Shown: in pieces, positions 22,884-62,427 of the stretch
Layout of the letters: each line of letters begins with the position of its first letter
Position numbering within the stretch: the first letter of the stretch is position 1
Source: Promethearchaeota archaeon
Lineage (GTDB): Archaea; Asgardarchaeota; Lokiarchaeia; Sigyniarchaeales; SOKP01
Reading direction: 5' to 3'
DNA: 64,000 nucleotides
NCBI GenBank assembly: GCA_018238625.1
Contig: JABCSY010000002.1
Coordinates: forward strand, 1 to 64,000
Program-made: the position numbers and the translations under genes
The notes under the pieces: model-generated
Told to the model about the DNA's origin: nothing
What the model saw: the letters and a program-made list of their open reading frames with translations, nothing else
Databases searched by the model: none

Positions 22884-22989
22884 GTGCAAGTGGTCTAGCT
22901 CGGTATGATGACACGCTCACACCGTGTAAATCTACATTAATTCTTTATGTAGATCACGTCGGTCGGGGGTTCGACTCCCTCCTTGCACA
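22884..22989 (+). tRNA. tRNA-Val(CAC) with 32-nt BHB intron in the variable loop (22929-22960)
   Basis: Acceptor GTGCAAG/CTTGCAC, anticodon arm ACACG-CTCACAC-CGTGT, T-arm GGGGG-TTCGACT-CCCTC. BHB helix CGTG/CACG with TAA and TCG bulges; splicing gives variable loop AGGTC. Confidence 0.9.
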
Positions 22990-36783: not shown

Positions 36784-37321
36784 TTTAATATACCTCTTTT
36801 CAAACCATGTAAAATTTATCTTTTTTTAAATTTTTTTTTCGTTCTCCTAATTTTCATAGGAATTAATTGATAACAAAAATTATTTTTTGTACACATAATA
36901 TTTTGATTGTTATCACAAATTATACTTCTTACATATTTAAACATTACGATTTTAATTCAAAAATTTACTAATAACAGCAACAAATTTTTTTTTTATAACG
37001 AATTCAATTTTTTTCTGTGAAAAAAACGAATTTGAATATAAATATTTTTAATGGGATTAAAAATCTATATAATATCGATATATACCATAAATTAAGATTC
37101 TTTTTTGTTGGGATTTGATTTTTTGATTTTCTTACCAAGGAATTATTTTGGAATGTAGAAATCTGTTAACATTTCATTTTTTTCGTAAGTTAACGCGACT
37201 TAAATTACTCAAAAAAAAATAGTTGCTTAAGTGTGAGCAAAAAATTTCTATTTAGATAATATTAAATAATACTTCTTTCACTAATTTTTTGGTACAAATC
37301 GTGTTTTAAGGTGAAATATTA

Positions 37322-39601: not shown

Positions 39602-39705
39602 CGGGCTATGAGGGACTTTCGCCTCCATCTGATAAGGATGGAAGTATCGAACCCCCGACCTGCCGGTTAAGAGCCGGATGCGCTACCTGCCTGCGCTAAT
39701 AGCCC
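39602..39705 (-). tRNA. tRNA-Lys(CTT) with 30-nt BHB intron in the T-loop (39616-39645)
   Basis: Acceptor GGGCTAT/ATAGCCC, anticodon loop CTCTTAA. BHB helix TTCG/CGAA; spliced T-loop TTCGATT. Confidence 0.92.
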
Positions 39706-39729: not shown

Positions 39730-39834
39730 CGCACCTGGAGGGATTTGAACCCCCGAGCGCTTACGCGCACTGGCTTGCTTGATAGTTTCTATTGTACGCT
39801 CAAGGCCAGCGTCTTACCACTAGGCTACAGGTGC
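39730..39834 (-). tRNA. tRNA-Ser(TGA) with 23-nt canonical 37/38 intron (39776-39798)
   Basis: Acceptor GCACCTG/CAGGTGC, CTGGC-CTTGAG|A-GCCAG, long variable arm, BHB helix CTTG/CAAG. Confidence 0.9.
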
Positions 39835-40812: not shown

Positions 40813-40944
40813 GCAATCGTCGCTTAGCCTGGTAGAACGGAAAAGCGTGCCGAAAGCGCTGGATTGCTAATCCAGTGTCCAAACGGACTCGTGGGTTCGA
40901 ATATCCCATTGATTACAATGGGGTCGGGACTCCCACCGATTGCG
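40813..40944 (+). tRNA. tRNA-Ser(GCT) with two BHB introns: D-loop (40836-40854, 19 nt) and T-loop (40902-40930, 29 nt)
   Basis: Acceptor GCAATCG/CGATTGC, CTGGA-TTGCTAA-TCCAG, long variable arm. Splicing restores GCTTAGCCTGGTAGAGCG and TTCGAAT. Confidence 0.9.
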
Positions 40945-40967: not shown

Positions 40968-41070
40968 GGGCCCATGGTCTAGTGGTTATGATTCAATTTT
41001 TAGAAATTGAATAATATACGTCTCGCTTACACCGAGAAGGTCGGGAGTTCAATCCTCCCTGGGCCCACCA
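40968..41070 (+). tRNA. tRNA-Val(TAC) with 27-nt D-arm BHB intron (40991-41017), CCA encoded
   Basis: GGGCCCA/TGGGCCC-A-CCA, TCTCG-CTTACAC-CGAGA. Splicing restores GTCTAGTGGTTATGACG. Confidence 0.92.
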
Positions 41071-61248: not shown

Positions 61249-62427
61249 ATGGTAATTAAAAAAGTTGGAATCCTTACGGGAGGTGGCGATTGCCCGGGTT
61301 TAAACTCCGTTATATATGGAATAATGTTGAAAGCTTATGATGCGGGCATAGAGTGTGTTGGAATCCTTAAAGGATGGAAGGGCCTTATGGAAAATCTTAC
61401 AATCCCTCTTAAGATTGCAGAACACGATGACTTGCATACTATTGGCGGGACTATATTATATACGAGTAGAACTAATCCCTTTAAAGGAGCAGAATCTAAA
61501 GAAAAAGTAGCAAAAGATCTGGTAACTAAATTTGAAGATTTAGGAATAGATGCGCTTATCGCTATCGGTGGAGATTTAAAACGGTTTACATTTTAAACCT
61601 AAAACGATACTTTAAGCGTTGCGGATGCTATGTGCAAATACTCAAAAGCGAACGTAGTTGGCTGCCCAAAAACGATAGACAACGATTTGGCTGGAACACA
61701 TTACACGTTTGGCTTCTGGAGCGCTGTACAGCTAGCCTCCAACGCGATGGATAACTTAACGACAACCGCGCGTTCCCATCAGAGAGTGTTTGTGGTAGAA
61801 ATTATGGGAAGAGACGCAGGATTTCTTACAATGTATAGTGGAATTTCTGCTGGTGCCGATATAATATTAATTCCTGAATCACCATTTAGTTTAGAGAAGG
61901 ATATTATTGACGTGCTTAAAAAAAGAGTCAATGCAGGATACAAATACCACATAATTGCTACCTCAGAAGGAGCTTATCCAAATTCAGAATCGTTGGAAAA
62001 GGATTTTAAAACAATATCGAAAGAAACGATTGATAAATTACCTAAAGATACATATGGAAACCCTTTGCTTGTAAAATTGAATATATCCAAAATAATTGTT
62101 GACGAACTCAACTTAAGAGAAGATTTAAAAAAGGAATTTCAGAATAATGGGGTGGATTTTGAGTGTAGAAGCGTAGTTCTGGGCCACACAATGCGAGCAG
62201 GGACGCCTAATTCGTTCGATAGAATCTTAGGATTGAGATTTGGGTTAGCAGCTATGAATCTTGTTTTGAAATCTAAATTTGGGAACATGGTTTCGCTTCA
62301 AGGAAATAAAATTGAAACTATACCACTTTCAGAAGGGGTAAAAAAGAAATACATTACCTCGGATAGCGATAAAATGGAATTACGAGACCTATTAGTGAAA
62401 ATTAGATATTTATCGAAACAAAAATAA
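61249..62427 (+). CDS. pfkA: 6-phosphofructokinase (PfkA family, PPi-type GGDD/PKTIDND), interrupted: exons 61249-61573 + 61604-62427 (382 aa if spliced)
   Basis: TGGGDCPGLN, GGTILYTSR, IGGD|DT, PKTIDND, EIMGR, LGHTMRAG. Both track ORFs are in the same frame, separated by a 30-nt insert with two TAA stops. Confidence 0.9.
61574..61603 (+). other. Candidate BHB-type mRNA intron (30 nt) in pfkA
   Basis: Exon stems TATCG/CGATA and GCGCTTA/TAAGCGT, 3-nt bulges AGA and AAA, 4-nt central helix GTGG/CCTA (2 WC pairs), intron stem TTTAAAA/TTTTAAA. Standard cut sites give GGA GAC GAT ACT. Confidence 0.7.

Follow-up and report, generated by a model that had tools for sequence, protein, structure and literature searches.

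A candidate tRNA-type mini-intron in the single phosphofructokinase gene of a Lokiarchaeial genome

Results

The interrupted phosphofructokinase gene

The window analyzed in this study, a stretch of 64,000 nucleotides from a Promethearchaeota archaeon (contig JABCSY010000002.1), carries a phosphofructokinase gene (pfk) that spans positions 61249-62427 on the forward strand. In the list of open reading frames (ORFs), the gene is read as two same-frame ORFs, 61249-61596 (115 aa) and 61630-62427 (265 aa). An in-frame insert of 30 nt at 61574-61603, which holds in-frame TAA codons at 61594-61596 and 61600-61602, separates IGGD from DTLSV. The Pfam profile PF00365 is matched from position 1 to 101 in the first ORF (E 1.9e-27) and from 101 to 276 in the second (E 4.9e-55); it is contiguous over both, and therefore no part of the protein is missing and only the insert is extra. 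A gene split into two same-frame ORFs and otherwise intact had been described in an earlier note made from the sequence without database searches (the original prediction), and the ORF list and the profile confirm this description. We propose, with a probability of roughly 85%, that the 30 nt are an archaeal tRNA-type intron with a relaxed bulge-helix-bulge (BHB) motif in the single pfk of the genome, which would be removed by EndA and RtcB. Exon 1 would then begin at Met1 and end with the first base of the Asp codon that comes second in IGGDD (61249-61573; ORF list and PF00365, with the junction fixed by relatives), followed by the mini-intron (61574-61603) and by exon 2, from the remainder of that Asp codon to the stop codon (61604-62427; PF00365 profile 101-276), all on the forward strand. 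The mini-intron is placed by the sequence itself, by a same-site insert in relatives, by its precise absence in the closest species of the comparison (G028), and by an independent DNA contig.

The source genome of the window (G000) is a metagenome-assembled genome (MAG) of 201 contigs with 7.6% contamination, and an assembly or sequencing artefact might be suspected in such material. A contig from a DNA run of another study (run X2, record 7) spans 61467-61633 with 0 differences, and therefore the insert is no assembly artefact but real, as the original prediction had supposed. The same insert in 18 other assemblies also refutes an artefact, the probability of which is negligible. No second pfk was found in G000, and the interrupted gene is the single phosphofructokinase of this genome.

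Both a GGDD and a PKTIDND motif occur in the pfk product. An Asp after GGD together with the Lys in PKTIDND is the marker rule for pyrophosphate (PPi)-dependent phosphofructokinases. The best NCBIfam model for pfk is TIGR02483 (PFK_mixed), with a score under its cut-off, and the intact pfk ortholog passes the cut-off only for NF002872, an 'ATP-dependent' subfamily model; these matches leave the phosphoryl donor, ATP or PPi, unsettled. The nearest named database proteins come from MAGs labelled Lokiarchaeota, Lokiarchaeia or Promethearchaeota.

Conservation of the insert among relatives

A total of 118 pfk sequences were compared, obtained from 117 of the 126 family genomes giving a match; genomes with pfk fragments only (G022, G064, G083, G094, G109, G111, G130, G142 and G145) were left out. 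A homologous 30-nt insert lies at exactly the IGGDD position in 19 of the 118 genes. The carriers belong to three genera, with 11 in the genus of the window, 7 in g28 and 1 in g27, and represent 18 genomes besides G000. They include pfk genes only about 75% identical in DNA. The insert is precisely absent from the pfk of G028, which is 91% identical to that of the window. In 12 pfk genes of other families within the order no insert is present. The original prediction had proposed that related Lokiarchaeia be aligned for variable inserts at the same site with covarying stems, and same-site inserts with conserved flanking helices are what the alignment shows. An insert in most other genera, suggested by BLAST-coordinate lengths, was rejected, as the alignment shows an unrelated 30-nt coding indel elsewhere in the gene. 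When copies of the pfk inserts were searched for elsewhere in G000, the sequence search gave only chance-level matches of 12-17 nt.

The relatives also fix the exon junction. In the pfk of the window three junction registers would each work. In 13 of the 19 carriers GGAG is followed by T and in the other 6 by A, and therefore only GGAG|AC restores Asp-Asp in the former; being A in some carriers and T in others, the first base past the cut is thus intronic. The last base of the intron also varies (A, G, C or T), and the AC that comes after it is identical in 19/19 carriers. The junction selected by the relatives is the register predicted by the BHB rule. Cutting after the second base of each bulge restores IGGDDT in all 19 carriers and is the sole working junction in 13 of them, so that GGAG|ACGAT, with the GAC codon proposed originally, is pinned down by those carriers with T as first intron base.

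Translational recoding, in which the ribosome would skip the insert in the manner of T4 gene 60, read through or shift frame, would make splicing unneeded, and it accords with an insert that is in frame, has a hairpin and brings a stop shortly after a Gly codon. However, matching take-off and landing codons are absent, since the carriers read GAU or GUU after GGA and no GGN lies near the 3' end. A hop from GAU to GAU would drop one Asp, and the 13 of 19 carriers that read GUU, which have no matching codon pair, could not make it at all. Moreover, the break falls behind the first base of the Asp codon and so calls for joining precise to the nucleotide, and most inserts at a second pfk site (GGG|DCPG, see below) are 31-32 nt long and split a codon likewise. 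Recoding is therefore very unlikely to account for the data.

After removal of the inserts at the BHB junctions, an open frame of 310-408 aa is obtained in 118/118 pfk genes, the shortest of which end at contig ends. Among 30 sequences of the genus, the median ratio of nonsynonymous to synonymous substitution rates (dN/dS) is 0.051 where both members of a pair carry inserts (62 of 66 pairs usable), compared with 0.047 in pairs without inserts (128 of 153 usable). The insert itself is more conserved than the third codon positions of pfk (0.81 versus 0.55), and this holds in 171/171 pairs. A decaying pseudogene is excluded by the open frames, the low dN/dS and an insert that evolves more slowly than third codon positions. 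The insert is thus real DNA, homologous across species and under constraint, and the surrounding gene is under strong purifying selection.

A recent pseudogene, or a pair of separate polypeptides (115 and 265 aa) that can do without a joined motif, would agree with the gene being split as annotated and with family calls of 265 and 357 aa in public databases. Against this stand a dN/dS of about 0.05 that is the same in uninterrupted genes, the intact frames of the whole family, and an insert common to genes as divergent as those mentioned above. The relaxed selection that the original prediction had named as a sign of recent decay is not seen. Moreover, the codons of DTLSVADA, which lie between the insert and the first Met, encode a conserved stretch of protein though they contain no start codon, and the gene is the sole pfk in G000. 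We therefore find a pseudogene or a two-polypeptide enzyme barely plausible.

RNA structure at the IGGDD site

The coordinates and base pairs given in the original prediction are all present in the sequence, and the stems GCGCUUA/UAAGCGU, UAUCG/CGAUA and UUUAAAA/UUUUAAA all occur in the minimum free energy (MFE) fold of 61545-61625. On the forward strand, the 5' strands of the exon (outer) helices at 61552-61558 and 61563-61567 pair with the 3' strands at 61613-61619 and 61605-61609, both in the MFE fold and in the RNAalifold consensus, and the pairing counts of the carriers agree. The putative central helix has its 5' strand GUGG at 61568-61571, opposite CCUA at 61598-61601, with two G:C pairs only. 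It is followed by the 5' bulge AG|A (61572-61574), where the cut would fall after 61573 by a rule checked on the tRNA introns of the window. The intron hairpin (61575-61597) consists of a 7-bp helix, 61575-61581 with 61591-61597, and a 9-nt loop. The 3' strand of the central helix and the 3' bulge AA|A (61602-61604) together occupy 61598-61604, and the second cut would fall after 61603.

Pairing was counted in cells over the 18 distinct carrier sequences. The intron helix is paired in 99.2% of cells, and its changes are all one-sided, from A:U to G:U, and therefore only the sense RNA strand fits. The proximal exon helix is paired in 98.9% of cells and the distal one in 88.9%, with two pairs changed on both sides; slid controls for these helices gave 33-47%. 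A competing GGUUUA/UAAACC hairpin, raised as a caveat in the original prediction, is paired in 72.2% of cells. In the RNAalifold consensus, a 7x7 internal loop is flanked by the intron helix and both exon helices, and a covarying pair 38:44 (A:U in 14, G:C in 5) lengthens the intron hairpin. The cuts derived from coding needs alone show two-fold symmetry, as each is 6 nt downstream of one helix and 1 nt upstream of the following one. Two tRNA introns of the window, 22929-22960 and 40991-41017, have the same symmetry.

A second insert site in pfk

Inserts of 30-32 nt were also found in the motif GGG|DCPG in 27 of 116 informative family pfk genes from five genera, including all four g22 genomes (for example L006:234-264 and L027:2610-2640, plus 25 others). 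One gene (L059, from G105) was dropped for this site, as its odd N-terminus is a run of N. Twenty-one of these inserts measure 31 nt, five measure 32 nt and one measures 30 nt, and the frame is broken in 26 of the 27. The insert follows GGNGGAG and, as at the IGGDD site, stands in phase 1 of an Asp codon. The inserts comprise several unrelated-looking sequence types with differing hairpins, one of them with a perfect 9-bp stem. Their central helix of 4 bp is paired in 104/104 cells; it shows one double change from C:G to U:A and otherwise only alternation of G:C and G:U. In 3/27 carriers the MFE fold itself is the BHB, and in 9/27 the two differ by no more than 1.5 kcal/mol. Four genes in the genus of the window carry both pfk inserts together. 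In the window itself the GGG|DCPG site (61288/61289) is empty. A contig with a GGG|DCPG-type intron before the TGCCC codons was observed in the sediment metagenome of run X2, at a loose end before window position 61291, and therefore a relative carrying this intron lives in that sample, where carriers of the one and of the other pfk intron thus occur together.

Inserts in other genes

For the comparison of G028 with G000, 1.01 Mb was aligned against G000, of which 852 kb aligned, and 73 indels of 14-130 nt with good flanks were obtained. Six of these inserts in other genes restore a broken frame on removal, parse as BHB and sit in highly conserved motifs; helices are given below as paired bases in the central, inner and outer helix. 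Three lie on the reverse strand of G000 and are absent from G028. The insert in leuS is 30 nt long (C152:29097-29126, L196; helices 4/7/4), contains a TAA, stands between PMGYD and SFGLPAE, and is missing from G028 with precise boundaries. That in a NifU-like gene is 31 nt long (C11:770-800, L198; helices 4/9/6) and follows the CxxC motif, with Pfam matches of 1-41 and 44-67. The third, of 35 nt, interrupts a BcrAD_BadFG activase gene before CAAGTG (C59:8907-8941, L197), with a central helix of 4, an interrupted inner helix, and Pfam matches of 1-135 and 137-271. Both the NifU-like and the activase insert break the frame, and the Pfam profile is contiguous across each.

The other three occur in G028, each with a central helix of 4 and no counterpart in G000. 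They are a 29-nt insert in the P-loop of aIF2-gamma, GHVDHG|KTTL (L167:7216-7244, reverse strand), and inserts of 30 nt in an AAA_5 ATPase gene (L180:8619-8648, forward strand) and in a histone-fold gene (L160:1631-1660, reverse strand). The inserts in leuS and the NifU-like gene are strong candidates for mini-introns, and those in the BcrAD activase, aIF2-gamma, AAA_5 ATPase and histone-fold genes moderate ones. The guess in the original prediction that other 'split' genes hide such introns is thereby borne out by leuS, the NifU-like gene and the activase. A genome scan for BHB folds, which it also proposed, gave no enrichment over controls. In-frame indels without stops in the alignment of G028 with G000 (e.g. 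C13:20657 and C193:4275) were taken as ordinary coding indels.

Splicing enzymes and tRNA introns

The EndA domain (PF01974) was found in two open frames of 200-202 aa in G000, with 97.7 and 73.8 bits, and the RtcB domain (PF01139) once, with 556.8 bits. The two EndA-domain genes are located on C58 and C7, and the RtcB gene on C24. EndA of Asgard archaea is described in the text of Kaneta et al. (PMC5829648) as the broad-specificity (alpha-beta)2 type with an L1 loop. ARAGORN reported no tRNA in the window, and Rfam was used in its place. Three of the four Rfam tRNA genes of the window (22884-22989; 39730-39834, reverse strand; 40968-41067) carry inserts at non-canonical positions, 26-33 nt long and located in the D-loop, the anticodon loop and the variable region. 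Two of them (22929-22960 and 40991-41017) can be parsed as BHB introns with the cutting rule used for pfk; they have a 4-bp central helix and an 8-bp hairpin and, at 27-32 nt, match the pfk insert in size. Six tRNA introns resolved by one rule had been claimed before; three insert-bearing genes and these two parses uphold part of the claim. Very strong BHB parses were also observed at 40902-40930 and, on the reverse strand, at 39616-39645 and 36957-36986, which may mark tRNA genes or introns missed by Rfam.

Proposed splicing of the pfk mRNA

In the mechanism that we propose, the pre-mRNA would fold such that exon-exon pairing of 61552-61567 with 61605-61619 and the intron hairpin at 61575-61597 flank the symmetric 7x7 internal loop, within which two to three pairs would form the central helix. 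EndA, made of the two EndA-domain proteins of about 200 aa, would cut after 61573 and after 61603, and RtcB would join the exons and probably circularise the intron. The mature mRNA would read GGA GAC GAT ACT and encode a 382-aa enzyme with an intact IGGDDT. Cleavage and ligation of the pfk mRNA, and the enzymes that carry them out, are what we infer from the sequence comparison. This core of the original prediction, a BHB micro-intron cut from the pfk mRNA by EndA and RtcB, is strongly supported by the carriers, the junction, the frames, the selection, the helices and the GGG|DCPG site.

Several results weigh against the proposal. At the IGGDD site, the central helix is paired in only 68.1% of cells, and its first position (G opposite A or G) is unpaired in every carrier. 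In G000 it has 2 of 4 Watson-Crick pairs, as had been stated originally, and the MFE fold lacks the 4-bp central helix and pairs AG at 61572-61573 with CU at 61599-61600 instead. RNAalifold also leaves the center as an internal loop without a central helix, and a full BHB, when forced, is less stable than the MFE by a median of 4.3 kcal/mol, a rough value given the forced non-standard pairs. The fold by itself is not beyond chance (z -2.08; 7 of 200 shuffles as good), and BHB-like parses are common by chance in the AT-rich G000. The covariation counts come from related sequences with few independent events. At the GGG|DCPG site, RNAalifold favours an exon-exon helix GGCGG/CUGCC over the BHB central helix; this helix is made of Gly and Cys-Pro codons, and these codons are found in intron-free genes too. 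The genome-wide scan of G000 for a BHB plus ORFs gave 283 matches against 283-387 in frame-shifted controls, an absence of enrichment that is explained by the gene boundaries that dominate the matches. Contigs from RNA libraries (runs X17, X18 and X19) cover 61264-61442 and 61904-62427 but leave 61449-61888, with the junction, uncovered, and therefore give no inference for or against splicing. The insert stands above chance because of its same-site conservation in 18 other genomes and the independent DNA contig. The IGGDD-site motif is a relaxed BHB, so labelled because of the weak central helix and the cost of the full BHB.

The weak central helix at the IGGDD site would also suit removal at the RNA level by other machinery, such as an unknown nuclease and ligase pair or a guide-RNA system, with the BHB-like fold incidental. 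However, the cuts have exactly the two-fold symmetry about the adjoining helices that is seen for tRNA introns of the window, a canonical central helix of 4 bp is present in the GGG|DCPG, leuS and NifU-like inserts, and EndA and RtcB are encoded in G000. Other machinery is thus unlikely.

Patchy distribution and possible mobility

Presence of the inserts was mapped on a tree for which inserts and flanks had been removed from 114 pfk rows, with L059, L071, L085 and L120 left out. The GGG|DCPG intron needs at least 19 changes for 26 carriers on this tree, and the IGGDD-site intron at least 15 changes for 18 carriers. The exon flanks of carriers are also more alike than those of non-carriers at equal divergence, by 4-11 points between pairs at GGG|DCPG (8-11 in two of four bins) and by 5-8 points at the IGGDD site. 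Such likeness would be expected under structural constraint on the exon helix as well as under co-conversion in the course of lateral spread. No ORF inside the pfk intron, and no nuclease gene adjoining pfk within the window, is present in the ORF list.

We tentatively suggest, at slightly less than even odds, that Lokiarchaeial genomes hold a whole population of mobile tRNA-type mini-introns in conserved catalytic motifs, with turnover between species, co-conversion of flanks, and glycolysis, translation and chromatin genes dependent on EndA and RtcB. The genes concerned would be pfk (two sites), leuS, the NifU-like gene, the BcrAD activase, aIF2-gamma, the AAA ATPase and the histone. If true, the prokaryotes most closely related to eukaryotes would have a proteome that depends on splicing and could be regulated at the level of splicing.

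In one GGG|DCPG carrier (L025:2715-2816, from G015) a second copy of the last 34 pfk codons, 82% identical, was observed about 105 nt downstream of the intact gene. It stands just before a convergent major facilitator superfamily (MFS) transporter gene, and no nuclease ORF is present.

Comparison with known systems

A BHB intron in archaeal cbf5 pre-mRNA was reportedly described by Watanabe in 2002. The intron of this pseudouridine synthase gene occurs in Desulfurococcales and Sulfolobales, with at least two reported losses (Yokobori 2009, PMC2738675). The pfk intron resembles it in being short, ORF-less, within coding sequence and of BHB-type fold, in a host whose EndA is expected to be hetero-oligomeric and of broad specificity, and both show lineage-specific loss and cause errors in gene prediction. 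Unlike cbf5, the carrier of the pfk intron belongs to the Asgard archaea (Lokiarchaeia by source names), the gene is glycolytic rather than one of RNA modification, two intron positions exist, and several further genes of the same genome are affected. The pfk introns are also far patchier, with at least 15 and at least 19 changes compared with the at least two losses told for cbf5, and their splicing is deduced from comparison of sequences whereas that of cbf5 was shown by experiment.

Non-canonical tRNA introns of Asgard and TACK archaea are cut by the (alpha-beta)2 EndA with L1 loop (PMC5829648). With the tRNA introns in the window, the pfk introns share the size class (27-32 nt in these tRNAs), the cutting rule and the architecture of hairpin, 4 nt and 3-nt bulge. 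Repeated gains are reported for Asgard tRNA introns in a preprint (bioRxiv 10.64898/2026.10.13.758758), in the main text of which the word 'mRNA' occurs 0 times. Unlike in these introns, the host RNA of the pfk intron is an mRNA, and therefore the exon helix is made of codons and splicing must compete with translation. An mRNA as substrate of the archaeal splicing endonuclease, as proposed here for pfk, has a parallel in Haloferax volcanii, where HVO_1309 mRNA is an additional substrate that the enzyme cleaves (PMC7714728). The passages on this mRNA give an account of cleavage and describe no frame-restoring exon ligation, which differs from our reading of pfk (PMC7714728). The only archaeal mRNA spliced by the tRNA machinery that is named in the searched literature is cbf5 of Crenarchaeota, next to the EndA-cleaved Haloferax mRNA, and supplements might hold more (PMC5829648, PMC12397907, PMC13149111, PMC7714728, bioRxiv 10.64898/2026.10.13.758758). 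The pfk mini-intron, if read correctly, is a new addition to the kind known from cbf5. It would make an Asgard gene of central metabolism dependent on a tRNA-type intron, with two sites in the gene and at least three more genes in the genome, and would offer a test bed for the entry and exit of introns in coding genes in the lineage nearest to eukaryotes.

The eukaryotic splicing of HAC1 and XBP1 mRNA by IRE1 and RtcB takes place at stem-loop sites, involves a tRNA ligase, is independent of the spliceosome and is regulated by stress. IRE1/RtcB splicing is also named in the text of PMC13149111. As in HAC1/XBP1, a small intron would leave the pfk mRNA without a spliceosome and change the protein made. 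Both the endonuclease and the RNA motif differ, and it is HAC1/XBP1 that is stress-regulated.

Effects on annotation

To judge by the lengths of database entries, the pfk introns cause systematic mis-annotation in public protein collections. Gene callers truncate intron-bearing genes, and therefore metabolic reconstructions from Asgard MAGs can wrongly count such genes as defective or missing. Of the 120 best database relatives, six entries are 265 aa long (P0006, P0045, P0077, P0083, P0101 and P0111), the length expected on restart after the IGGDD-site insert. Seven entries are 357 aa long (P0010, P0023, P0079, P0086, P0087, P0090 and P0108), which is the length expected on restart after the GGG|DCPG insert.

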